A DNA stretch of 64,000 bases from Promethearchaeia archaeon (GCA_029856085.1 JAHQWI010000184.1:2972-66971); one strand, 5' to 3'; shown: positions 11,369 to 61,290, counted from the stretch's first letter. Program-made: numbers and translations. Notes: a model not told the origin generated them from the sequence alone.

Positions 11369-13207
11369 ATGGAAGATGAATCTACCAGAGGGGAAGATAG
11401 TGTGGAATTCCATGATTATTATAAATTTAGAGTATCATACGTAACACAAAAGAGTTTAGGAATAATTGTTTTATTTGTTACTGGTTTAACAGATAAATTT
11501 GATAATATTAAAAAGGAATTAGTGAAATGTAGGAAAGAATTTATTAATTTATTTGAAGAAATCCTACAACATCGTTTTGATGCAAAAACTTTCGAAGTGT
11601 TTGATCCAATAGTAGATTCAATCCATAAAAATCTTCGACCTAAGATATCTTTGATTGGTTTTTCTGGAGTAGGAAAAACAACTATAACTAGATTAATCAG
11701 AGCAGAAGAAATACCATTGCAACATATACCTACGATTACTGGTGACATAGCTACTGTAAGAATAGGAAAATTACATTTTCATTTATGGGATTTTGCTGGA
11801 CAGGAACAATTTAGTTATCTTTGGAATAATTTTATTAAAGGTAGTGATGCTGCTCTTTTAATTACTGATTCAACTTTAGAAAATGTTGAAAAAAGCAAGT
11901 TTTTCTTAGAATTAATAAAAGAACAATCCCCACATGCGCACACAGCAGTAATCGGAAACAAACAAGATTTAGGAGGAGCTATTAAATCTGCGCAAATTGA
12001 ACGGATTTTAGGGTTAAAAACATACTCTATGATCGCAAAAAAACCTGAAAATCGGGACAAGATGATTCAAATTATTGCTGATATATTGGAAATGAGCGCA
12101 GAGGTTTCACCCTTATTAAAACCGCTTTTAGAGCGAGATAAATTAATAGAAGAAGCGACAGGAGCATTGAAAAGTGCAGATTTCGAAAAAGCTGCATTTC
12201 TTTTTGATAAGATTAGTGATTTGTGCTTAGAATTGGGAGATGATTCATTAGGTAAAGAATTTTTTGAGAAATCACAAAAAATTAAAACTATGTTAGAACA
12301 AGTTGGGGCTCCTCAACCAACACCAGCTTTTCCAATAGAAACAGATAGGGCTGAACAATCTAAAGCTTCAGGAAAACCAAAATTGTCAGAAGAAGTTATT
12401 GTATCAAAGCCAACAATAGCAATTGAAACATCAGAAATGCCTAAGCCCCCTGCGCCTATTCTTCCACCTCCAAGACCAATAAAAGAACAAACAGTAGATC
12501 ATAATATAGCAGAATTACCAAAAGAAAAACTAGATTCTACAATAGATTGGATTAAATCTAGCAAGCCTATACAAGAACAAAATAAAGTGATGGAATCTGA
12601 AATTGAAAATAATAATATCGGTTTGAAATTAAATCCCGAAGATTATATAGTAAAAATTAGACCAAAAACTATAGGAGCTGTACCGAAAGATGCTAAATCA
12701 AAGTTGAAAACATCTGCATATGGTCATGTTAAAAATATACCCTCCTTAAAAGAAGAAGCAATTGTTAGTCAAACAAAAACGCAAGAACCTGTATCAATAA
12801 AAGTGTCTGAAGAAGTGTCAACAGTAAGATCACCCTCCCGCCCTTCAGAACTATTCAAGACGGATACCCAATCGATATCTACGCAACCACTAGAGACTCA
12901 TGAACAATTAAAATCTACTGTAACACCTAAAGACATAATTCCAGAGACAATTTCTAAAGATGTTATTGAAACTGAACGACCGATATCTACGATTGATAAA
13001 ATTCAAATAGACCATGCGAAAAAAACACTGATAGAATTAAAATTAAAAAAAGCTGATTTATACAAAATGGCTTTAGATTTTGATATAAAAGAACTTAAAG
13101 GTGAAATTTCTGAAGAGGAACTTGAAAATAAAAAGAAGAAAATAAAGGAATATGAGAAAAAAATAGATATTCAGATTCAAGAGATGCAAAAACTATTAAA
13201 AGATTAA
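11369..13207 (+). CDS. Multidomain Ras-superfamily small GTPase with a long disordered P/S/T/E/K-rich region and a C-terminal coiled coil
   Basis: G1 GFSGVGKTT, G3 WDFAGQEQF and G4 GNKQDL are present. There is a ~90-aa N-terminal domain, a ~300-aa low-complexity region and a terminal coiled coil. The frame is open upstream to 11258 (VFIYKGEELLYYRHFGKAL...), so the true start may be ATT 11264, 6 nt after GGTGA 11253-57. Confidence 0.8.
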   Translation: MEDESTRGEDSVEFHDYYKFRVSYVTQKSLGIIVLFVTGLTDKFDNIKKELVKCRKEFINLFEEILQHRFDAKTFEVFDPIVDSIHKNLRPKISLIGFSGVGKTTITRLIRAEEIPLQHIPTITGDIATVRIGKLHFHLWDFAGQEQFSYLWNNFIKGSDAALLITDSTLENVEKSKFFLELIKEQSPHAHTAVIGNKQDLGGAIKSAQIERILGLKTYSMIAKKPENRDKMIQIIADILEMSAEVSPLLKPLLERDKLIEEATGALKSADFEKAAFLFDKISDLCLELGDDSLGKEFFEKSQKIKTMLEQVGAPQPTPAFPIETDRAEQSKASGKPKLSEEVIVSKPTIAIETSEMPKPPAPILPPPRPIKEQTVDHNIAELPKEKLDSTIDWIKSSKPIQEQNKVMESEIENNNIGLKLNPEDYIVKIRPKTIGAVPKDAKSKLKTSAYGHVKNIPSLKEEAIVSQTKTQEPVSIKVSEEVSTVRSPSRPSELFKTDTQSISTQPLETHEQLKSTVTPKDIIPETISKDVIETERPISTIDKIQIDHAKKTLIELKLKKADLYKMALDFDIKELKGEISEEELENKKKKIKEYEKKIDIQIQEMQKLLKD

Positions 13208-15802: not shown

Positions 15803-16327
15803 CTATGTTCTTGAATCTATAATTCGACGGGTCAATTCAGTAAAGGCTTCATCAACATTTACACCCGTTTTAGCAGATGTTTCAACATATATACTCCCTT
15901 CTTTTTCTGCAAATGAACGAGCTTCATCTCTATCTATAACTAAACCAACATCCTCGATTAAATCCGCTTTATTTCCAATTAATACAAAAGGAATATTCTC
16001 TCCCGCAAACTGGCGTATCTCCGTTAACCATTTCCTAGTTTCTGTGTAAGTTTGCTCTCTAGTTAAATCAAATACCAACAGGGCACCGGCAGCTCCTTTG
16101 TAAAATGTACTACGTATAAACTCGAACCGTTGTTGTCCACCAATGTCCCAAATTGACAAAGTTGCTATTTCACCAGATCTAAATTCTACATCTTTAGTAA
16201 GGATATCAACCCCCACTGTTAATTTGTAATTAGCTTGGAATCTGTTTTTGATGAATCTTTGAACCAGACTTGTCTTACCAACGGCAGCCGCGCCAGTAAG
16301 TAATACTTTTAATTTAAAACTTGACAT
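15803..16327 (-). CDS. Rab-like small GTPase (Asgard-type, no C-terminal prenylation Cys)
   Basis: GAAAVGKTSL (G1), WDIGGQQRF (G3), YKGAAGALLVFD, GNKADL (G4) and ETSAKTG (G5). The protein ends ...RIIDSRT without a CC/CAAX motif. Confidence 0.85.
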   Translation of the reverse strand: MSSFKLKVLLTGAAAVGKTSLVQRFIKNRFQANYKLTVGVDILTKDVEFRSGEIATLSIWDIGGQQRFEFIRSTFYKGAAGALLVFDLTREQTYTETRKWLTEIRQFAGENIPFVLIGNKADLIEDVGLVIDRDEARSFAEKEGSIYVETSAKTGVNVDEAFTELTRRIIDSRT

Positions 16328-18760: not shown

Positions 18761-21700
18761 ATGCAAAATCCAGAAGAATTAGCTCAAGAAGCTTTAAAAT
18801 TTTTAGAACTAGCTCAAAAGTTTGAAGAAGAAAAAATGGCAGAAGAGGCAATCTCAAATTATCAAAAAGCAGTGGAATTTCTGAAAAAAAGCGGATATTT
18901 AATGCATAGAATTAATGAGATATATGAAAGAATAGAGGAATTGAAAGATTTCATAAAACAGAAAAAGTTATATCAACAGACTCAAATTAAGACTCAAGTA
19001 GAACAACTCCAAGACCAAGCATTTGCCTTATTAGAAGGGGCTAAAAAATTAGAATTTGATGGCTTTTTTGAAGATGCTATCCAACAATATTTATCGGCTA
19101 TTAATTTATTAAATCAATCTGGTTGGTCTGAAACTCAGTTAGAAAACTTAAGATTAAAAATAAAAGATCTTTCCGATACCTTAAAAAAGGAACAAGGTAT
19201 TCATCAAAAACAACAAAAAGAACTGACTCCTCCTGAGGAATATCTACAAAAAATAGAAGATATAAAACCTGAAGTTGTTGGTATGTTTGGGGAAACAGCA
19301 AGTAGAGAAAAAGCAGAATCTATAGCCCGATATAGATCTAGGAAGATGCAAGAGGAAGAAACACAAAATCATGCGTTTGCTCATATAGATAAAGCTAAAG
19401 AATTTGAAAAAGAAAGAAAATTCGATAAGGCAATATTGAATTATGAAAGCGCAATAGATTTATTAAATTCTATAGGGTGGGATGAACAAACTCAAAAAAT
19501 TAAGGTTATTATTGAGAAGCTTAAGAAAGACAAACAACAATTTGAAGACTTTCAACAAAAACAAGCTAGCATTGAAATAATAGGTAAAACAACAAGTGAA
19601 GAATCAATTGAAAAATCAGAAACAGAATTGGAAAAAGCTAAACTAATTGAATTTGAAGAAAAAAAGAAGAGAGAAGAAAATATTCAAGCAAGTGCGTTTA
19701 ACTTAATTAATATTGGAAAAAGATTCGAAAGGGAGAAAGATTATGAAAATGCCATTCAAAAATTTGAACAAGCCGTTGATTTATTCAAATCAATAGATTG
19801 GGATTCATATATTCAGCCTGTTATTAATTTAATAGAAGATATTAAAGCAAGGAAGGAAAGAGAACAAAGAGCAGGGCAATTAAAAGAAAAAAGACAAAAG
19901 GATATTACAATTCTTCAAAAATCTATATATAGAAAGCAAAAGGAAGAAATTTTTCAATCAGCAAAGGAATTGGATTTACGAAGACGACAATTTGAAGAAA
20001 AAAGAGAAGATGAAACAAAGAAGGAAAAACATTTTTTTACAATTTTAAGTAATGCTGATAGCATTTTACAGTCAAAAAATTATGAAGAGGCGATTAATGA
20101 ATATCAGGATGCTTTAAAACTTATAGAAGAATTGGGTCCTGGTTGGGAAACTTATGTTTCTAATATTAATAATACCATTTCAAATGTACAAAAATTGAAA
20201 AATTCACAACTAAAGAAAGAATATGAAGTTCAACAGAAACTAGAAAAAAGAGAAATTGAGGAATTGGAGTTTCAAAAACAAATTGCTAATCAATTAGATA
20301 AAGAGCGAGAGCATTTAAAACAAAAAGAAATTGTATTAAAAGATAAAGAAAAAGAAATAATATATTTAGAACAACGTAAAAATGTTGCATTTGAATCTTT
20401 AGATTCTGCTATAAATTATATAAACCAAGGGGATTATGATAATGCGATAATAGCTTACCAAAATGCAGGTAATATATTTGCTGAAATTCAATGGAAGGAT
20501 GAAATTCCTATAATAGAAAAGTCTATACTAAAAGTTGAAGAACTACGAAAAAACCAAAAAATTCTAAAACAAAAAAGAATGCAAGAAACGTTGGAAAGAC
20601 AGAAAGAAGATGAAGCATTCCAAAAACAGATTTCTCAATATTTAAAACAAGAACGTGAAAAATTAAAGAAAGGAGAAATAGAATTAAAAAAACGTGAGGA
20701 AGAACTAAAATATCGTGAAGAAAGAAGAGAAGCAGGATTTAAATTGCTTGAGCAAGCTCAAGATGAAGTAACCAAAGGAAATTTTGATAAAGCTATTGAG
20801 ATACTTCATTATACCACAAACTTCTTCGCTGAAGCTCAATGGCAAAATGAAATTAGTTTAATTCAAGATTCGATAATTGAAATTGAAAATAAAAAAAGAG
20901 AAGCAGAAATACAAGAGCAGATAAAATTACAAACAAAATTGGAAAGAGATAAGCAAGACAAAGCTTTTCAAAAGTTGGTAACATATGAGATTAAATCACG
21001 TCAAGAAAAACTAAAAAAACAAGAGATTATCGTTAGGGAACGCGAAAAAGAAATCGCATTTCGTGAGAAGAAAAAAGAAGAAGCGTTTAGTTTGCTAGAT
21101 GAAGCGAAAAAATTAGTATCTGTTAATAACTATGATGCTGTTCTTGAAATATATTATAGAGTATTAAACTTGTTTGCCCAGATTCAATGGAAAGAAGAAA
21201 TTTCAATATTAAAAGAAGCAATACAAGATATAGAGGAAAAGAGGAGGGAAGAAATACTTTTTAAACAGAAACAATTGCAAATAGCTGTTAAAAAAGAAGT
21301 AGATGATAAAGTTTTTATCGAAAAAATTAAATATCAGAGAGAAAGAGAAAAACAAGAAGCTCTTACAGATTTAGAATTTATTGAAAAGCAAAAGAAAATA
21401 TCTGCTCAGAATTTAACTAAACAACAGGAAGCTTTTATAATGATTGAAGGAGGAGAAAATCTACTTCAAGTTGAGAAATATGAGGAGGCTGCAAAAAATT
21501 ATCGGAAAGCAATAGAGATATTAAAAGAGATTGGCTGGGGAACGGATTATTTGAAATTATTAAAGGAAACAATATTCACAATACAATCTAGAAAATTAGA
21601 AAAAGAAAAAGAGACCCAAATTGAATTTGAATTAAAATTAAAACATCAAAAAGAAGAAGAACAATTTCAAAAGAAAATTTCTGGATATCTGAAAACAGAA

Positions 21701-24700
21701 CAAGAGCGAATTAAAGCAAAACAAATACAATTTCAAAAACGCGAAGAAATGTTAGATATTATTGAAACACGTAAATCAGAAGCTTTTAGTATGATGGATA
21801 AAGCAGAGAATTTATTAGACCAAGGTCAATATAACGAATCAATAGAACATTACAGGCAAGCTGAATTAAATTTAAATGAAATTGGTTTTCCAACTGATCT
21901 TATTAGAGAAACTATTCAAAAGATTCAAGAAAAAAGAAGAGAGGAAGAATTAAATAAATTTAAAGAATTAGAGATGAGTCTCAGAAAAGAACAAGAAGAT
22001 TTGGCATTTCAACAACAAATTTCTGAAAAAGTAAGACTGGAACAGGAAAAAATGAGAGCAAAGCAGGAGAAACTAAAGAAACAGGAGGAAATTAGGTTAT
22101 TAATCGAAAAGAAAGAAGAAAACGCATTTAATATATTAGAAAAAGCACAAACCAACATTGCTAAGGGAGAATTTGATAAAGCAATTGTTTTATATCAAGA
22201 AGCATCTGAGATTTTTACAGAAATTCATTGGGATGATGAAATTAAGTTAATTCAGAACTCAATCAGAGATGTTGCGAATAAAAAGCGTGAAGCTGAATTG
22301 AAAAAACAGAGAGAGTTAGAAGAAGCTTTAGAACATGAAAAACTTGAAAACGCGTTTCAAGAACAAATCGTAATAGAAATTACAAGTCAAAGAGAACAAA
22401 TAAAACAAAGAGAAATTGTCCTCAGAAAAAAAGAAAAAGAAATTGCTTATCGCGAGGAACAAAAGGAAATAGCGTTCAATTTATTAGATGAAGCTCAAGC
22501 TCTTCTCTCACAAGGAAAATATGATAACGCACTCAAATTATATAATAATGTTGCCAATATATTTGCTCAAATTCAATGGGTTGATGAGATTCCTATAATT
22601 CAAGAAGCAGTAAATGATATCAAGAAGATAAAAAGAGAAAAAGATATCATACAACAAAGAGAATTAGAAAAAGCAATAGAAGATGAAAAAGGTAATTATG
22701 CTTTTCTGGAGCAAATTAAAGTTCATAAAGAACGAGAAAAAGCAATGGCAATGAGGGAACTGGAATCAATAGAAATACAAAAAAAAGCAACAACTCATAA
22801 TTTAATAAAACAGCAAGAAGCATTTAAACAAATTGAAGAAGGGGATGAATTACTTAAACAAAATAACTTTGAAAACGCCTTAAACAAATATAATGAAGCT
22901 ATTACTATTTTAACCGAAATTGGGTGGACTGGGGCTTATTTAAAATTATTGAATGATACTATTAGTACAATCAAGAGTAGGAAAAGAGAATTAGAAGAAG
23001 CCAAAAGATTAAAACAGCAATTATCAATTAGACAACTAAAAGAAGAGGAAAAATTCCAGAAAAAGGTTTTCGAATCTATTCAGAGTGAAAAAGAGAGATT
23101 AAAAGAAAAAGAAATCCAAATTCAAAAACAAGAGGAATTACTAAAATTATTGGAAAAAAGAAAGTCAGAAGCATTTGAATTAATGCATGGTGCTGAAAAA
23201 ATTTTAAGTAAAGGTCAATATGAGCAAGCGATTGAAAAGTACCGTCAAGCAGAATTAATATTATATGAAATCGGATTTCCTACTGGAGCAGTTAAGGAAA
23301 TGATAAATAAAATTCAAGCGAAGAACAGAGAAGAAATCATTTCAAAGCAGAAAGATTTGGAGAATATGTTAAGAAAAGAAAGCGAAGAACTTCAGTTTCA
23401 GAGAAAAATCGCTGAAAGTATACAAATAAATGAAATGAAGATGAAAACTAACCAGAAAGAATTTGAAAGACAAAGGGAATATTATGAGTACATGGAGAAA
23501 AGAAAGAATGAAGCTTTTGAACTCCTTGAAGAAGCAGAAATCTATATGAACCAAGCTCAATATGATAAATCTCTTGAATATTATCGTTCTGCTGAAATTT
23601 TACTAAATGAAATAGCCTTCCCAACTGAAGCTATTCGAGAAATGATTCAAAAAGTTCAAGAAAAGAAAAAAGGACATCAACTACAGAAACAAAAAGAACT
23701 AGAGCTAAAACTTCTAAAGGAAAGGGAAGAATGGGAGTTTCAGCACAACATTACCGAACAATTTAAAGAAGAAACAGAAAGATTACAAGTAAAACAAGTA
23801 CAAATTGAGGAAATGGAAAATTTGAAAGCAAAGCTTGAAAATAGAAAACAAGATGCTTTTAAGATTTTGGATGATGCAGAGGATTCATTAAAAAGATTTG
23901 AATATGAGAAAGCAATTGAAAGTTACAGAAGAGCAGAATTAATTTTAAATGAATTGCGTTTCCCGACGGATTCGATTAAGAGTATGGTAATGAAGGTTAG
24001 ACAAGTAATAAAGCAAAAGGAAGAAATACAAGAATTACAATTTCAAAGAGAACTAGAAAAAGTACAGGAAGAAAAAGATTTACAATTGCTTATTGAAGAA
24101 AGGCAAAGACAAGAAAGAGAAAAGAAAAAAGCCCAACTATTAGCACTTCAAGAAAGAGAAAGAATCATTCAAGAACAAATGAGTATAAGAGAATCTGCTT
24201 ATTCTATGTTAGAAGAAGCAGGGAAGTATCTGAAACAATTAATCCCCGACTACAATAAAGCTATTTCTTTATATGTTCAATCTAGGAATCTTTTAGCAGA
24301 AAATATAGGATGGGATCTTGAAATAAATAATTTAAATGCCTTGATCAAGGATTTACAGCAAGAGCAGGTTAATTATCAAGAAAAAAAACGATTAGAGGAA
24401 CAAGCGCGAGTCCAAAGACAGAAAGAATATGAATTATTCCAAGAAGAAGTTAAAGCAAGAAGATTAGAACAAGAAAAGCTAAAGAGAGAACAAGAAAGGC
24501 AATATAGGGAACTAATTCTAAGCAAACGTAGAATAGATGAAATTAAAGATGAGGGATTAAAATTAATAGATGAAGGTAAAAAGTGGGGAGCATATCATGA
24601 CTTTAAGAGAGCGTATCAAAATTTTGAGATGGCAAAAGGAAAGTTCAAGGATATTGGTTGGCTTGAAGAAATAAAATATATTGAAACTGAAATAAAAAAT

Positions 24701-25123
24701 ACGAAAGCTCTTGAAGAAAGAGTTGAAGGTGAGGAATTAAAAATCCAAAATCTTCAAGATCAATTAGAGAAGCAGAGAGTATTAGAAGAAAGTCGCAGAA
24801 AAACAGAAGAAGCGCAATTGAGAGAAACTGTTGGAGACGTTAGTAATCTAGCTAATGAGGTTATTAATTTAATTGAAGAAAGGAGAAAACAACAAGAAAT
24901 AACAGATACACAGAAAAAAGAGGAGATAAAGTATGAAGCAAAAGAATTTAGACGAATGATGGGAGATATAATAAAGATAAAAGAAGAGCTAATTAAAGAA
25001 TTAGAAACAAAAGAAATTGAAAAACGAGATTTCCAAGAAAAATTACAAAGGGCTAAAGAGAGAGAAGAAATAGATAATTTAAAAAGGATAATTAAAGAAG
25101 CGGGGAAAAAGGAAAAAAAATAA
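18761..25123 (+). CDS. Giant (2120 aa) repeat protein: about 18 MIT/TPR-like three-helix units separated by K/E/Q/R-rich coiled-coil linkers
   Basis: A single uninterrupted ORF. The recurring unit is AF-x-LL-x-x-A-x(5-7)-G-x-Y(F)-D/E-x-A-I-x-x-Y-x-x-A-x-x-I/L-F/L-x-E-I-(Q/G)-W (or G-F-P-T), about every 115 aa. Confidence 0.85.
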   Translation: MQNPEELAQEALKFLELAQKFEEEKMAEEAISNYQKAVEFLKKSGYLMHRINEIYERIEELKDFIKQKKLYQQTQIKTQVEQLQDQAFALLEGAKKLEFDGFFEDAIQQYLSAINLLNQSGWSETQLENLRLKIKDLSDTLKKEQGIHQKQQKELTPPEEYLQKIEDIKPEVVGMFGETASREKAESIARYRSRKMQEEETQNHAFAHIDKAKEFEKERKFDKAILNYESAIDLLNSIGWDEQTQKIKVIIEKLKKDKQQFEDFQQKQASIEIIGKTTSEESIEKSETELEKAKLIEFEEKKKREENIQASAFNLINIGKRFEREKDYENAIQKFEQAVDLFKSIDWDSYIQPVINLIEDIKARKEREQRAGQLKEKRQKDITILQKSIYRKQKEEIFQSAKELDLRRRQFEEKREDETKKEKHFFTILSNADSILQSKNYEEAINEYQDALKLIEELGPGWETYVSNINNTISNVQKLKNSQLKKEYEVQQKLEKREIEELEFQKQIANQLDKEREHLKQKEIVLKDKEKEIIYLEQRKNVAFESLDSAINYINQGDYDNAIIAYQNAGNIFAEIQWKDEIPIIEKSILKVEELRKNQKILKQKRMQETLERQKEDEAFQKQISQYLKQEREKLKKGEIELKKREEELKYREERREAGFKLLEQAQDEVTKGNFDKAIEILHYTTNFFAEAQWQNEISLIQDSIIEIENKKREAEIQEQIKLQTKLERDKQDKAFQKLVTYEIKSRQEKLKKQEIIVREREKEIAFREKKKEEAFSLLDEAKKLVSVNNYDAVLEIYYRVLNLFAQIQWKEEISILKEAIQDIEEKRREEILFKQKQLQIAVKKEVDDKVFIEKIKYQREREKQEALTDLEFIEKQKKISAQNLTKQQEAFIMIEGGENLLQVEKYEEAAKNYRKAIEILKEIGWGTDYLKLLKETIFTIQSRKLEKEKETQIEFELKLKHQKEEEQFQKKISGYLKTEQERIKAKQIQFQKREEMLDIIETRKSEAFSMMDKAENLLDQGQYNESIEHYRQAELNLNEIGFPTDLIRETIQKIQEKRREEELNKFKELEMSLRKEQEDLAFQQQISEKVRLEQEKMRAKQEKLKKQEEIRLLIEKKEENAFNILEKAQTNIAKGEFDKAIVLYQEASEIFTEIHWDDEIKLIQNSIRDVANKKREAELKKQRELEEALEHEKLENAFQEQIVIEITSQREQIKQREIVLRKKEKEIAYREEQKEIAFNLLDEAQALLSQGKYDNALKLYNNVANIFAQIQWVDEIPIIQEAVNDIKKIKREKDIIQQRELEKAIEDEKGNYAFLEQIKVHKEREKAMAMRELESIEIQKKATTHNLIKQQEAFKQIEEGDELLKQNNFENALNKYNEAITILTEIGWTGAYLKLLNDTISTIKSRKRELEEAKRLKQQLSIRQLKEEEKFQKKVFESIQSEKERLKEKEIQIQKQEELLKLLEKRKSEAFELMHGAEKILSKGQYEQAIEKYRQAELILYEIGFPTGAVKEMINKIQAKNREEIISKQKDLENMLRKESEELQFQRKIAESIQINEMKMKTNQKEFERQREYYEYMEKRKNEAFELLEEAEIYMNQAQYDKSLEYYRSAEILLNEIAFPTEAIREMIQKVQEKKKGHQLQKQKELELKLLKEREEWEFQHNITEQFKEETERLQVKQVQIEEMENLKAKLENRKQDAFKILDDAEDSLKRFEYEKAIESYRRAELILNELRFPTDSIKSMVMKVRQVIKQKEEIQELQFQRELEKVQEEKDLQLLIEERQRQEREKKKAQLLALQERERIIQEQMSIRESAYSMLEEAGKYLKQLIPDYNKAISLYVQSRNLLAENIGWDLEINNLNALIKDLQQEQVNYQEKKRLEEQARVQRQKEYELFQEEVKARRLEQEKLKREQERQYRELILSKRRIDEIKDEGLKLIDEGKKWGAYHDFKRAYQNFEMAKGKFKDIGWLEEIKYIETEIKNTKALEERVEGEELKIQNLQDQLEKQRVLEESRRKTEEAQLRETVGDVSNLANEVINLIEERRKQQEITDTQKKEEIKYEAKEFRRMMGDIIKIKEELIKELETKEIEKRDFQEKLQRAKEREEIDNLKRIIKEAGKKEKK
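20640..23430 (+). repeat. Tandem ~1.39-kb (about 462 aa, four-unit) super-repeat inside the giant ORF
   Basis: Units 7-10 match units 11-14 one-to-one. Examples: NLTKQQEAFIMIEGGENLL..EIGWGTDYLKLLKETIFTIQSRK versus NLIKQQEAFKQIEEGDELL..EIGWTGAYLKLLNDTISTIKSRK, and EIGFPTDLIRETIQKIQEK versus EIGFPTGAVKEMINKIQAK. The offset between matching motifs is ~1386-1390 nt. Boundaries are approximate. Confidence 0.6.
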
Positions 25124-25245: not shown

Positions 25246-26874
25246 ATGAGGATATTTGGAATGACTGAAAAAATTGAAGATGTTGTTAAGGCACGTATGT
25301 ATGCTCGACAACAGCTTATTGACGGATGGGATCAAGACATCATAAATGAAGGATGTATTATAATCATCGGAGTAGGCGCGTTAAGAATATTATAATTAAT
25401 AAATTTCGCGAATGGCTGTGAAATCGCTAAAGATTTCGCTCTGATGGGTATAGGTAAATTAATATTAGTTGATCTTGATACAATTGAAACGTCTAACTTG
25501 TCTCGTCAAATGCTATTTAGACCTGGAGATGAGGGACGCCCAAAAGCAGAAGTCGCAGCTGAACGACTAAAAGAAATGAATCCGTATTTAAATATTGATT
25601 TTTACTTTGAAAAACTCCAAAAGTTGTCGATGTCAGTTTATGAAGAATCAGACGTAGTTGTCGCTGCTTTAGATAACTTTAATGCAAGATTAGATTTGAA
25701 CAAAATCTGCCTTAGAATGAAAAAACCCATGGTTGAGGGAGGTACAGTAGGTTTTGAAGGACATGTGCAAATCGTAATTCCTGAAGGTACAGGATTAAGA
25801 TATAAAAATAAAAAAAATGAAATTGAAAATTTAGTAGAAGCAAGACTTTGGGAAATAACGGATACTGAATATCCTGATTATTATAGGGCTCAAAGAGAAA
25901 TTGAATTATTAGAAGAGGAAATTGAACGAATAAAGAATGCAAGAATCTATCCTATAGTCAATAAAATAAAAAAAGAAATTGAATTGGTTTTTGATTGGAA
26001 ATATGCCCCTGAGTTTTTAGACCAAACACCATGTTATAGATGTTTAGTTCCAATTCCTCCTGCTGATGATAAATTAGTAGCTGCGTGCACTTTAAAAGGG
26101 TTACCCCGTAATAGAAATCATTGTGTTATCAAAGCTGAAGTCGAATTTGAAAAAAAATACAGTCATAAGCCAGATCTCAATTTAAATGATGAAGTTCTTA
26201 AGTTAATGGAGATTGCCCAAGTAGAATTAGAAAATCTAAGAGAAAGAGTATTTAATGAGAATGTTCCTTCAGAAGAGAGGGATTCTTTAACCAAAGAACA
26301 AATTGAAGATTGGAAAAAAAATATTAGAGAGACATTCGGACCAGATTATAAGTTTGAGGAAATGGAAAATATTTTGGGAAATAAAATAGCTGCGATACAA
26401 ACTGTTAGTTCTATTATCTCTAGTATTCAATCTCAAGAAGCGTTAAAACTTTTATTCAGAGTTAATGGAAGAAATATTGGACCCCCAATGGATCCTCCGT
26501 ATGTCAATTATAATGGTATCTATGGTCAATTTGATCACTTAAATATCCTAAAAAGAGATGATTGCCTTGCTTGCGGAAAAATAGAAGGAGAAGAAAATGT
26601 TCAAATTGTAGTTCCTTTTGATGCGAATGTAGGTTATATATTTGAAGCAATGGAAATTTCAGGACATATGTTAGATTCAGAATTATGGATGATTACGAAT
26701 CCTATGACTAAAGAAATCTATTGGAATCCATATATGCCTTCATTGAAAGACCCAGAGGTAAAACTGACTTCTCTAAAAATAAAGAGCAATGATATAGTTA
26801 CGCTGAGTCCGTTAGGAAAGGCATTAGCAGAATCAGAAATAAAAAAGTTTAATGTCGTAATCGCTTTTATGTAG
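25246..26874 (+). CDS. Ubiquitin-activating E1-like enzyme (ThiF/MoeB/UBA fold), interrupted in its GxGxxG loop by a 30-nt stop-containing insert (putative BHB intron)
   Basis: The upstream piece reads M(RIFGM)TEKIEDVVKARMYARQQLIDGWDQDIINEGCIIIIGVGA. It continues in the same frame after the insert as GCEIAKDFALMGIGKLILVDLDTIETSNLSRQMLFR. The zinc motifs PCYRC and CLACG are present. In-frame TAA at 25393-95. Confidence 0.8.
25383..25412 (+). other. Putative BHB-type intron in the E1-like gene (30 nt)
   Basis: A 4-bp helix CGCG(25377-80)/CGCG(25407-10) is flanked by 3-nt bulges UUA(25381-83) and AAU(25411-13). Cutting after the 2nd bulge nucleotide joins GCG UU|U GGC to give GVGAFGCE, in frame and with the stop removed. 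No convincing outer helix was found. Confidence 0.5.
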
Positions 26875-29952: not shown

Positions 29953-30471
29953 TCAATCTTTTGAATATTTTTCAGTCCATGATTTCGCTTTAGCTTCGAA
30001 CTTTTTCTGTGCTCTAAAATATTGCTCTCCTGCTTCGTGGTTTAATGGATCTCCCGGGTTAAAGAAAGGAGGCTCGACATGCATCATGCCTTTGAGAGCT
30101 TCAATAATATTAGTTAAAGTTTTACTTGGTGTCCACCCCGATGCCCCCGTACTTGCATCAACTTTTCCCACAAGGTCTGGATTAATTAAATCTAAACAAA
30201 TGTTAAGCTTTCCCGGTGGAATAGAACTGTCAATATTGGGATGCCACATTAGGGTAACGGCATAAGCATATGGAGGGGCGAAAGGGTAATTATCTGGAAA
30301 TTTGATTTCAAATATAAATTTGCCATCTGCATAAGGAGTTCCTTTCTTGCCTATGATAGTTAAGCGTAAGTGATCAATACTCCTACCCCATGGTTCTAAA
30401 ATGACAGTAGGTTCGTTCTTATACGTTTCGATTGCTTCAGTATAATCAGTTTCTTCCCTGATGGTAATCAC
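29953..30471 (-). CDS. Ubiquitin-conjugating E2-like enzyme (UBC fold)
   Basis: FPDNYPFAPP followed by WHPNIDSSIPPGKLNICLDLI (HPN motif plus catalytic Cys, compare HPNI..G.ICLDIL). GTG start within aaaGGTGAtt. Confidence 0.85.
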   Translation of the reverse strand: MITIREETDYTEAIETYKNEPTVILEPWGRSIDHLRLTIIGKKGTPYADGKFIFEIKFPDNYPFAPPYAYAVTLMWHPNIDSSIPPGKLNICLDLINPDLVGKVDASTGASGWTPSKTLTNIIEALKGMMHVEPPFFNPGDPLNHEAGEQYFRAQKKFEAKAKSWTEKYSKD

Positions 30472-30758: not shown

Positions 30759-30912
30759 CCCTCCCTAACTCAGTGGTCAGAGTGCTCGGCTGTAGATAAT
30801 ATCGCGTACTAAAGCTTGTAGCTAATGAAGTTACGTCAGCCGTTACCGAGCGGTCCCCGGCTCGAAATAAGGTTCCATATCGGAACAAGCTAGAATCCGG
30901 GGGGAGGGACCA
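30759..30912 (+). tRNA. tRNA-Tyr (GUA) with two introns (49 nt at 37/38 and 29 nt in the T-loop at 59/60) and an encoded CCA
   Basis: Acceptor CCCUCCC/GGGAGGG with the C1:G72 pair plus A73. D arm ACUC-AGUGGUCA-GAGU. Anticodon stem CUCGG(30785-89)/CCGAG(30846-50), loop CU-GUA-G|..|A. T stem CCCGG(30856-60)/CCGGG(30897-901). Introns at 30796-30844 and 30867-30895. 154 nt minus 78 nt gives a 76-nt mature tRNA. Confidence 0.85.
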
Positions 30913-35012: not shown

Positions 35013-35480
35013 TTGAGATTGGGTATGAGTGAAGATACCAAAAAGATAAAATTAAGTACAGACACAGAAGTAGATTTTGATGAAAAAGCCCCGACAACTC
35101 TTTTTGAAATTATTATTAGTGAGATTCTGATTCCTAAGTATAAGGAAAATGCGGATTGGAATTTATCTTTAAATATTATCATCGAGGAAATGAATAAGCT
35201 TATAATAAAGTATGACCTTAGTCCAAAACTTAAGTTAGGCTTGCTTAATAATGTTGAAAAACATCTAGATAAAGACATTGAAGAGTTAACTGGAGTGGAT
35301 AAGATTGAAATATTATTCTTAAATATGGATGATTATGTTGAAGATATACGAACACTGATACTTGCAGGTAAAGATAAAGAAGAACTCCGTACTGATATGG
35401 CAAATTTAGTAATGCCATTGACGCTTTTTGAGTTAGCAGAGCTTTTTATTTATTTAGGAAAGAGAACATTTTTAAAATGA
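35013..35480 (+). CDS. Hypothetical acidic helical protein
   Basis: A 155-aa ORF (probable start ATG 35025). The antisense ORF 34994-35278 is low-complexity and judged spurious. Confidence 0.45.
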   Translation: MRLGMSEDTKKIKLSTDTEVDFDEKAPTTLFEIIISEILIPKYKENADWNLSLNIIIEEMNKLIIKYDLSPKLKLGLLNNVEKHLDKDIEELTGVDKIEILFLNMDDYVEDIRTLILAGKDKEELRTDMANLVMPLTLFELAELFIYLGKRTFLK

Positions 35481-52010: not shown

Positions 52011-52113
52011 TGGGGACTGAGGGATTTGAACCCCCGACCGACAGGTGTCCACGGAACAGCTTTTGCTTGTAGGATCTGGAGCCTGCTGTGCCACCGGGCT
52101 ACACCAAGTCCCC
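52011..52113 (-). tRNA. tRNA-Trp (CCA) with a 29-nt intron at the canonical 37/38 site
   Basis: Acceptor GGGGACU/AGUCCCC plus A73. D arm GUGU-AGCCCGGUG-GCAC. Anticodon stem GCAGG/CCUGU, loop CU-CCA-G|..|A (anticodon 52079-52077). T arm GGGGG-UUCAAAU-CCCUC. Intron at 52047-52075. No encoded CCA. Confidence 0.9.
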
Positions 52114-54392: not shown

Positions 54393-54432
54393 TCATACTA
54401 ATAATATAAAAAAATAAGGTGATAAAAAGAAA

Positions 54433-54667
54433 ATGCCTGGTTCTCATGGGAGTTTGACTAAAGCTGGAAACTCATTCTAGAAAGACTAGATGAGCTAGAG
54501 AAGTCAAAATGCAAACTCCTAAAATTGCAAGGTCAGGAGTGAATTCTCGAAAGAAGAAATCTCCAAGAATGCGATTTCGGGATTTATATAAAGCTCGATT
54601 TGTTGATGGTCGATTTGGAGGTCAACAAGATAGTATTGGGGCTAAAAGAGCTCAATTTAAAAGATAA
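54433..54667 (+). CDS. rps30e: Ribosomal protein eS30 (S30e), split by a 31-nt BHB intron (exons 54433-54469 and 54501-54667)
   Basis: Exon 1 reads MPGSHGSLTKAG-. Exon 2 reads -KVKMQTPKIARSGVNSRKKKSPRMRFRDLYKARFVDGRFGGQQDSIGAKRAQFKR*. The join gives 204 nt (67 aa), matching the conserved SHGSLTKAGKV.xQTPK core. The unspliced frame stops at TAG 54478. Confidence 0.8.
54470..54500 (+). other. BHB (endonuclease-type) intron in rps30e
   Basis: H helix CUGG(54464-67)/CUAG(54495-98). Bulges AAA(54468-70) and AGA(54499-501). Inner hairpin 54471-94. Outer helix UUUGACU(54453-59)/AGUCAAA(54502-08). Confidence 0.75.
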
Positions 54668-60258: not shown

Positions 60259-61290
60259 TTAGAATTTTGTTATTTCAATATGTTCAACATCTTCAGAAAC
60301 GTGAACATATTTATGCTTATGAACATTATCGATTGACCCAATAATCCAATTTGAAACTCCAAACTTTGTAAGTCGTTCTGAAAATTCTTCTGCTTGTTTA
60401 TGATCAACAGAAATGAGCATCCCGCCTGCTGTTTCTGGCATTTCGCATGAATCAAATTTATAACCAAAATCATATGACAATTCTCTAGATAATTTAATAA
60501 TAGGCACTATATCAATAGTTGCTGAAAGTTTAGAATTTTGAAGCATCTCTTTTAAATGACCTGCTAAGCCAAATCCAGAAACGTCTGTCATTGAATGAAT
60601 GAAGTTATTCTCAGGGTAAGAATGTGTTACTTCTACTACATCTTGAAGCGGTGTAATCATTAAATTTATTGCTAAATCAATAGAAGCATCAATCTTCGAT
60701 TTAGAGTAATTCTCTATAAGAGCGGGGTTGTTTTTTTGTAGACGATATGCTGCCATAATAGCTTGATTTCCTATTGGTTTAGTAACTATAAGTTTATCTC
60801 CTAATTCAACATAGTTTTTTCGTATAATCTTGGTTTTCTCAACGAAGCCTGATGCCTCACCTCCAATCAGCGGCCATTCAGAGTATATTGTATGTCCCCC
60901 TAAGATTTTAGAATTTATCTTATTTTCCATGAAATTTTTAATTCCACTTAATATACCTTCAGCAACGTGCATTGGCATATTTTTCTTCATTCCTAAGAAA
61001 ACAAGCATTCCAGAAATGTCTAGTACATTTAATGCAAAAACATCATTAGTTACATTGGCAGCAGCAATCTCTCCCATGATTTCTGGTTCATCTAGGATTG
61101 GAGTGAAAATGTCAATATTTTTCACCATGACAAGGTCGGTATTAGGCACAGGAATTACGGCAGAATCTTCAATGTCTCCTTTTAATCCAACGTTGGATAG
61201 TAGTTTATCTAACTTTTCCGCGTCAAGTTTACAATTTCAGCCAAATAGTTTCGTTTGCAATGTCAATCGATAACTCTCTAACTCTTGCAT
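60259..61290 (-). CDS. selD: Selenophosphate synthetase (SelD), selenocysteine-containing, paralog 2
   Basis: The frame continues upstream of 61149 through TGA 61239-61237 to ATG 61290: MQELESYRLTLQTKLFG-U-NCKLDAEKL... GAGGTGA lies 3 nt before the ATG. The body is similar along its whole length to paralog 1. Confidence 0.85.

Follow-up and report, generated by a model that had tools for sequence, protein, structure and literature searches.

Splicing of an archaeal coding region by the tRNA endonuclease has so far been confirmed for a single gene, cbf5 of the Crenarchaeota. As of 2020 this was the only bulge-helix-bulge (BHB) intron reported in an archaeal coding region, with one additional case in a Haloferax 5' untranslated region (UTR) (PMC7714728). 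The stretch of 64,000 nt from a Promethearchaeia archaeon described here (GCA_029856085.1 JAHQWI010000184.1:2972-66971, referred to as the window) carries a gene for ribosomal protein eS30 that is interrupted by 31 nt, which from their sequence and fold are very probably a relaxed BHB intron, with the splicing endonuclease as the cutting enzyme and RtcB as the ligase. Both the gene and the phylum are new for such an intron; the mechanism is known. There is no prior report of BHB introns in Asgard protein-coding genes in the full-text literature searched, by which subscription journals are largely uncovered, and the novelty claimed in the initial annotation of the window, with cbf5 as the essentially sole precedent, matches the literature (PMC7714728, PMC2738675). 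The Asgard-like nature of the genome, also proposed there, agrees with homologues named Promethearchaeota or Lokiarchaeota and with the Ras/Arf GTPases and E1/E2 ubiquitin-system genes in the window.

The cbf5 intron of the Desulfurococcales and Sulfolobales (Watanabe 2002, Yokobori 2009, PMC2738675) is, like that of eS30, short and located in the coding region, has an unconventional, relaxed BHB with cuts between the second and third bulge bases and a tie to a hetero-oligomeric endonuclease (both predicted for eS30), and shows patchy gain and loss among relatives as well as routine mis-annotation. Its host is a pseudouridine synthase gene in Crenarchaeota, whereas eS30 is a ribosomal protein gene in an Asgard archaeon. 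Unlike the cbf5 intron, that of eS30 has a fixed length of 31 nt and splits a codon of the most conserved motif; cbf5 splicing is backed by cDNA and in vitro work, whereas the eS30 intron is predicted from its sequence. The non-canonical archaeal tRNA introns (relaxed HBh'/hBH; PMC5829648) have the same structural signal and the same predicted enzymes, but the host RNA of the eS30 intron is an mRNA and its outer helix is built of coding sequence, which would mean that synonymous sites are constrained by RNA structure. The mRNA of Haloferax volcanii HVO_1309 (PMC7714728) also contains an EndA substrate, as is predicted for eS30, yet this BHB intron is in the 5' UTR, in a euryarchaeon with a strict alpha'2 enzyme, and its removal rebuilds no frame. 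In HAC1/XBP1 splicing in eukaryotes (IRE1 with RtcB or Trl1), a protein endonuclease cuts a folded mRNA at two loops and a tRNA ligase joins the ends, and excision of the 26 nt XBP1 intron shifts the reading frame, both as proposed for eS30. The nuclease there is IRE1, the recognition motif is another one and the process is stress-regulated, so that the likeness is not one of membership.

Direct reading of the sequence confirms that ATG 54433 opens a frame, encoding MPGSHGSLTKAGNSF, that is ended by TAG at 54478-54480, and that eS30 resumes at about 54503 in the +1 frame, both as initially annotated. The +1 frame from 54503 (GTC AAA ATG CAA...) reads VKMQTPKIARSG...AQFKR, the remainder of eS30, to TAA at 54665-54667. 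Translation of the unspliced window mRNA ends after 15 codons, and the listing of open reading frames (ORFs) shows one piece only at this locus, of 52 amino acids (aa), at 54509-54667. Excision of 54470-54500 produces a 67 aa eS30 protein, and excision of 54471-54501 gives the same product, since A54470 equals A54501. The spliced protein scores 49.8 bits against Pfam Ribosomal_S30 (PF04758), for which the cutoff is 27, with the exon 2 ORF alone under the cutoff at 22.4 bits, and it has 314 homologues; the Pfam score and the homologues uphold the claim that this removal creates a 67 aa ORF with the conserved eS30 core. The N-terminal HGSL.KAGKV motif of eS30 is present in the spliced product. 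At the predicted junction the invariant AGK|VK motif, which is the same in solved archaeal and eukaryotic ribosomes, is rebuilt, and the junction motif SHGSLTKAGKV..QTPKI aligns to the eS30 chains of archaeal and eukaryotic ribosome structures (PDB). Residues 1-14 (M1-V14) are invariant in an alignment of the query and 13 homologues. The public records (NCBI) contain intron-bearing eS30 genes only as exon 2 ORFs of 52-54 aa named "hypothetical protein" (at 52-53 aa, MFW9865871.1, MFX1469963.1, MFX1596016.1, MBY8991782.1), and eS30 seems absent from these genomes because only this ORF is annotated. An exact look-up of the spliced form of the window allele in the protein collection finds no such sequence.

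The best homologues are uninterrupted eS30 proteins of 67-68 aa from Promethearchaeota and Lokiarchaeota metagenomes, reaching 96% identity across 100% of the length. Syntenic contigs, approximately 93-97% identical to the window, are without exactly these 31 nt. The gene order in the closest contigs is a 191 aa ORF, a 163 aa double zinc ribbon, a 49 aa ORF, eS30, and a convergent 629 aa TPR protein, and the intron is missing to the exact base in loci L001-L004 and L010-L012. The comparison of orthologous eS30 loci, which the initial annotation had put forward as a check, thus finds relatives that lack exactly the 31 nt and others that share the insert.

The intron-bearing relatives were found with a degenerate DNA pattern demanding a gap of 13-43 nt at the eS30 codon, which identified four GTDB species-representative metagenome-assembled genomes (MAGs; L005-L008), each with a 31 nt insert. 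Exact look-up of the exon 2 ORFs added six further intron-bearing contigs, L020-L025, from JGI, ENA, and Logan assemblies. There is therefore a 31 nt insert at the same codon in 11 contigs (the window and 10 others), with 8 distinct sequences. The contigs come from NCBI MAGs, JGI, ENA, and Logan, and represent several assemblers and at least 9 different samples. In silico removal of the 31 nt restores the frame, the invariant Lys13, and full-length eS30 in 11 out of 11 loci, and the intron-bearing loci that were tested unspliced reach a stop after 13-15 codons. In the other intron-bearing loci, too, the eS30 ATG follows a purine-rich motif comparable to that of the window (Table 1). In the JGI metagenome collection, two pattern scans returned no intron-bearing copy; their sole match, L009, is an intron-less gene caught through its ribosome-binding site. 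The exact look-up of the window 52 aa ORF in the contig index was empty, although the protein collection has the sequence.

The unconstrained minimum free energy (MFE) fold of 54445-54515 reproduces the initially annotated structure base for base (Table 1), with an energy of -18.1 kcal/mol against -10.7 +/- 2.6 for shuffles (z = -2.9; 1/200 shuffles as good). Every helix and bulge is where it had been placed, but its description as near-textbook was overstated, as the 3' site is in a 4x3 internal loop. The bases AAAG at 54460-54463 in this loop, which are set by the Lys10-Ala11 codons, are invariant. Two 3 nt bulges, AAA and A-N-A, are present on opposite strands, 4 bp apart, in 8 sequences, as in a BHB, and the inner hairpin begins directly after the 5' bulge, giving the helix adjoining a bulge that characterizes a relaxed BHB. 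The eS30 motif is a relaxed BHB, the type that is processed by heteromeric endonucleases. Marck and Grosjean reportedly described the relaxed HBh'/hBH motifs of non-canonical archaeal tRNA introns in 2003. A self-splicing group I or group II core is excluded, as such a core takes up hundreds of nucleotides and the insert only 31 nt, with no Rfam match at the locus, and no repeat of the intron hairpin is present elsewhere in the window.

Covariation was computed on the 8 distinct intron-bearing sequences (alignment A5). Standard pairs are formed in 95.1% of the pair cells, and compensatory two-sided changes that preserve pairing occur at 7 pairs, all of them in the inner hairpin. None of 500 shuffles matched the observed values of pairing and compensation, sliding the 3' partners by 1-3 columns as a control reduces pairing to 20-47%, and RNAalifold independently gives the same consensus structure. 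The five pairs of the outer helix core are 97.5% paired, with 54456/54505 occurring as G-C, G-U, and A-U; in the central helix a G-U becomes G-C in L006 and L025; and all 9 pairs of the inner hairpin vary, with 91.7% of their cells paired. Between near-identical alleles, any difference inside the modelled region either falls on an unpaired base or preserves pairing, as in L022 against the window (a difference at the bulged U54476), L020 against L005 (a loop difference, with the U54459-A54502 pair also restored in L020), and L025 (U-A changed to U-G). The alignment indicates that the BHB structure is under selection, and that an insert which recurs at this site in 10 other contigs with such a covarying fold is far beyond chance.

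The alleles also bear upon the site of cleavage. Position 54500, the second base of the 3' bulge and the last of the intron, is G, A, or U, while 54501 is always A, and this supports the predicted cut site. Were 54500 to be kept, the invariant Lys13 would be replaced by Glu in the window and by a UAA stop in L006 and L025. Exon 1 varies at 7 sites among the intron-bearing alleles, synonymously in every case. Exon 1 is thus translated within a protein, and the gene is not in decay; coding selection acts on both exons.

In the proposed pathway, eS30 would be transcribed as a pre-mRNA containing the 31 nt BHB intron, in which 54453-59 of exon 1 would pair with 54502-08 of exon 2, assembling the 4 bp helix and the two opposed 3 nt bulges, with the intron hairpin at 54471-94 closing the motif. 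The tRNA-splicing endonuclease EndA would cleave both bulges 3' of their second base (54469|54470 and 54500|54501), and an RtcB-type ligase would join GGA A|AA GUC, restoring the frame and creating the invariant Lys13 codon. The excised 31-mer would probably be circularised, and full-length eS30 would be encoded by the spliced mRNA alone. In the cbf5 pre-mRNA substrates, the cuts are likewise between the second and third bulge bases, with two 3 nt bulges 4 bp apart (PMC2738675). Asgard EndA has been reported as (alpha-beta)2, with an L1 loop conferring broad specificity, and relaxed BHB motifs are cleaved by (alpha-beta)2 and epsilon2 endonucleases (PMC5829648).

The tRNA genes of the window appear to draw on the same rule. 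ARAGORN and Rfam on the raw window recognize one tRNA only, and once the introns are cut out in silico by the second-bulge-nucleotide rule, ARAGORN identifies the products as tRNA-Tyr and tRNA-Trp; the statement that this rule reproduces three tRNA splice sites in the window is hereby substantiated. For the tRNA-Trp(CCA) intron a relaxed BHB is predicted, whose 3' site falls in a 1x2 loop and whose 5' site falls in a 6x4 loop. With three tRNA introns to remove, including one in a T-loop, the organism must be able to process BHB sites of a non-canonical kind.

Table 1. Positions in the window of the eS30 gene, its predicted intron and fold, and other features.
Feature	Position	Strand	Basis or remark
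Shine-Dalgarno-like GGTGAT	54418..54423	+	9 nt upstream of exon 1 ATG; direct reading; putative function
eS30 exon 1: MPGSHGSLTKAG and first base of Lys13	54433..54469	+	direct reading, Pfam, homologue alignment
Outer (exon-exon) helix, 5' strand UUUGACU	54453..54459	+	MFE fold; conserved core 54455-54459
Unpaired AAAG facing 3' bulge (4x3 internal loop)	54460..54463	+	MFE fold; invariant in all alleles
Central 4 bp helix, 5' strand CUGG	54464..54467	+	100% paired in 8 sequences
5' bulge AAA, predicted cut 54469|54470	54468..54470	+	MFE fold; invariant; second-base rule (PMC2738675)
eS30 intron (predicted), 31 nt, in-frame TAG 54478	54470..54500	+	missing to the exact base in intron-less syntenic relatives
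Inner hairpin CUCAU-U-CUAG / loop AAAGA / CUAG-AUGAG, bulged U54476	54471..54494	+	MFE fold, covariation
Central 4 bp helix, 3' strand CUAG	54495..54498	+	MFE fold, covariation alignment
3' bulge AGA, predicted cut 54500|54501	54499..54501	+	allele variation at 54500, invariant A 54501
eS30 exon 2: last two bases of Lys13 to TAA stop	54501..54667	+	direct reading, ORF list, Pfam, homologue alignment
Outer helix, 3' strand AGUCAAA	54502..54508	+	MFE fold, covariation alignment
tRNA-Trp(CCA), one 29 nt intron	52011-52113	-	ARAGORN call after in silico splicing
tRNA-Tyr(GUA), encoded CCA, introns 30796-30844 (anticodon loop) and 30867-30895 (T-loop)	30759-30912	+	missed by ARAGORN/Rfam unspliced
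E1-like ThiF (ubiquitin-activating enzyme) gene, candidate second mRNA intron 25384-25413	25261-26874	+	homologue comparison
Eukaryote-signature genes and 2120 aa ORF	11369-13207, 15803-16327, 29953-30471, 18761-25123		

Several points weigh against an endonuclease-type intron in eS30. The strict hBHBh' definition fails, 54460-63 being unpaired opposite the 3' bulge in every allele, and the single-sequence MFE folds of L005 and L008 recover the motif incompletely (z = -0.5 and -1.1). The covariation statistics come from only eight related sequences, whose kinship inflates the significance of the shuffles. The excision itself and the enzymes are deduced from sequence and fold, on which the case rests, and a scan of 50 of the 53 window ORFs turned up neither an EndA nor an RtcB gene. 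The search for a second eS30 copy covered the window, so that a copy elsewhere is possible.

It is on this last point that a pseudogene might be argued, in which a small palindromic insertion has broken the gene and eS30 comes from another copy, or only the 52 aa part is made from ATG 54509. Gene callers and NCBI do annotate only the exon 2 ORF, and the remainder of each genome is outside the region searched. Against this, the window has no second eS30 copy, the length of 31 nt and the covarying structure are kept in lineages in which the TPR neighbour is only 60-78% identical, exon 1 varies only synonymously, ATG 54509 sits inside a helix and has no ribosome-binding motif of its own, and the N-terminus that would be lost is the most conserved part of eS30; a pseudogene is very unlikely. 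There is slightly less still to be said for the ribosome recoding the gap without RNA cutting, by translational bypassing of the T4 gene 60 type or by frameshifting. The stop codon and stable hairpin just 3' of the break are superficially like those of gene 60, but there is no landing codon matching the take-off GGA or AAC (no GGN or AAY), and upstream of 54501 the exon 2 frame has GAA (Glu) in the window or UAA (stop) in L006 and L025 rather than Lys13. Two conserved 3 nt bulges exactly 4 bp apart are moreover the signature of the endonuclease, with no role in bypassing. An assembly or sequencing artefact, which the initial annotation had listed among the outcomes that would undo its proposal, is effectively refuted: the window is from a metagenome-type assembly and short palindromes can mis-assemble, but the insert recurs across independent contigs, 11 of them from at least 9 samples and several assemblers, and with lineage-specific differences.

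The remaining alternative accepts the element but not the enzymes or the purpose, and is improbable, though not negligibly so. The insert might be excised by machinery other than EndA and RtcB, or be mainly regulatory, with its retention tying eS30 synthesis to tRNA-processing capacity. The enzymes are predictions and the 3' site is relaxed, and since the unspliced mRNA stops after 15 codons, splicing efficiency would set eS30 output. No other archaeal enzyme is known for the BHB motif, which counts against other machinery. In geometry and cut positions, the eS30 element agrees exactly with known EndA substrates, the cbf5 pre-mRNA among them (PMC2738675), and that many close relatives manage without the intron argues against an essential regulatory role. 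Splicing by EndA with ligation by RtcB is the preferred explanation.

Relatedness to the window was gauged by the identity of the neighbouring TPR protein, over the whole protein or over the C-terminal approximately 300 aa. The intron is present in L008 (78% whole, 76% C-terminal), L005 (72% and 68%), L006 (63% and 60%), and L007 (61% and 61%). It is absent from L010 (97% C-terminal), L001-L004 (94-95% whole, 95-96% C-terminal), L011 and L012 (93-94% C-terminal), L013-L017 (74% C-terminal), and L009 (62% whole, 59% C-terminal). The spliced L007 protein is identical to the uninterrupted NCBI protein MEE9377897.1 (loci L018 and L019). By this identity and by the TPR yardstick, the intron has a patchy distribution even among near-identical lineages. 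Within one syntenic Lokiarchaeia-like group, it is old.

Alleles with and without the intron differ most around its site, as two independent close pairs show. Between the window and the intron-less L010, there are 9/54 differences in the first 54 coding nt versus 4/147 elsewhere (p = 0.0012), and between intron-bearing L007 and intron-less L018, 10/54 versus 7/153 (p = 0.003); pairs of intron-bearing alleles reverse this pattern, for example 0/54 versus 15/150. By bin counts, the divergent patch in the window extends over approximately 54403-54522. The intron-bearing alleles all use GGG AGU/UCU YUR ACU/ACA AAA GCU GGA A|AA GUY, which forms the helices, and the intron-less alleles GGU UCN YUA ACN AAA GCN GGA AAR GUN. 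Since no series of synonymous steps leads from AGU to UCN serine codons or back, the preferred explanation of recent gain or loss is that homologous recombination replaced a short allelic tract. These patterns suggest that the intron was recently gained or lost by recombination swapping approximately 110 nt that include the intron site. The long-term conservation of the flanks is attributed, by inference, to selection for structure at their synonymous sites.

At its boundaries, GCUCGAA|A...AGCUAGAA|U (30860-30900), the T-loop intron of tRNA-Tyr is closely similar to the eS30 intron, GCUGGAA|A...AGCUAGAG|A (54463-54505). Neither the remaining two tRNA introns nor the E1 candidate described below have boundaries like those of the eS30 intron. 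By its boundary sequence, the eS30 intron may descend from the tRNA-Tyr T-loop intron.

The E1-like gene (Table 1) reads ...IIIGVGAL, then RIL*LINFAN, and then GCEIAKDFALMGIGK..., so that GVGAL and GCEIAKD are separated by a 30 nt insert containing an in-frame TAA. At this point, more than 50 E1 homologues are contiguous, reading GVGALGCEIAKD, and excision of 25384-25413 gives a 527 aa E1-like protein. There is a BHB-like register in which second-base cuts restore Leu41, weak at -2.2 kcal/mol; the MFE fold, at -8.1 kcal/mol, uses a CGCG/CGCG helix and would give Phe41 instead. The related Lokiarchaeia E1-like ORFs P0144, P0155, P0168, P0170, P0173, P0141, and P0147 end or diverge at different conserved positions, the break points being after VEG, after DLDTI, or just before GLGCE, and one broken ORF is LCGC14_0832410 on the original Lokiarchaeum contig, of 107 kb. 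The varied break points suggest that the ORFs of the relatives carry further short inserts. Endonuclease-type introns could thus be recurrent and exchangeable in protein-coding genes of Lokiarchaeia-like Asgard archaea, rather than a one-gene curiosity, because there are two candidates (eS30 and E1) in one 64 kb window, the E1 breaks in relatives are varied, and the eS30 alleles with and without the intron seem to move by recombination with co-converted flanks; this generalization is tentative, and its chances are somewhat below even.

A generic BHB scan of the whole window was uninformative at 30% GC, giving thousands of hits, 360 with a frame-restoration filter, the best-looking of which (36524-36470, - strand) is simply two abutting genes.

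If eS30 is spliced as proposed, the closest known relatives of eukaryotes would splice mRNA with protein enzymes common to eukaryotes. The intron accounts for eS30 looking "missing" or "hypothetical" in public annotations of Asgard MAGs, a mis-annotation that affects marker-gene sets, completeness estimates, and phylogenomic matrices. The natural pairs of alleles with and without the intron are material for the study of gain and loss of such introns.

Elsewhere in the window, there are eukaryote-signature genes typical of Asgard archaea, with Roc/Arf/Ras-family GTPases and an E2 ubiquitin-conjugating enzyme adjoining the E1-like gene. A scan for σ70 promoters and terminators is uninformative for an archaeon. 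The sequence at 35075-35132 (+ strand) weakly matches the Rfam C/D-box small RNA family sR18, below threshold (22.6 bits, E = 0.9), and UGAUGA and CUGA boxes are recognisable in it.

In an NTP-transferase gene at approximately 403 (+ strand), the conserved N-terminal motif KAIIIAAG is upstream of any ATG, GTG, or TTG, as is the P-loop GTAGSGKS in a GPN-loop GTPase gene at approximately 46982 (- strand). Both have an in-frame ATA with a GGTGAT or GAGGT motif 5-8 nt ahead of it, and this points to ATA as the possible start codon in these two genes. The GPN-loop GTPase was considered as a third split gene, but an ATA start codon behind the GAGGT motif fits better. Two tandem AIRS-family (SelD-like) genes, at 60259 to approximately 61290 and 58991 to approximately 60010 (both - strand), each have an in-frame stop in G-[stop]-x-C-K-L, with an ATG-initiated ORF upstream of the stop. 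The stop is TGA in the first of these genes (60259 to approximately 61290), for which alone the codon identity was read, and the in-frame stops in the two genes are candidate selenocysteine codons.
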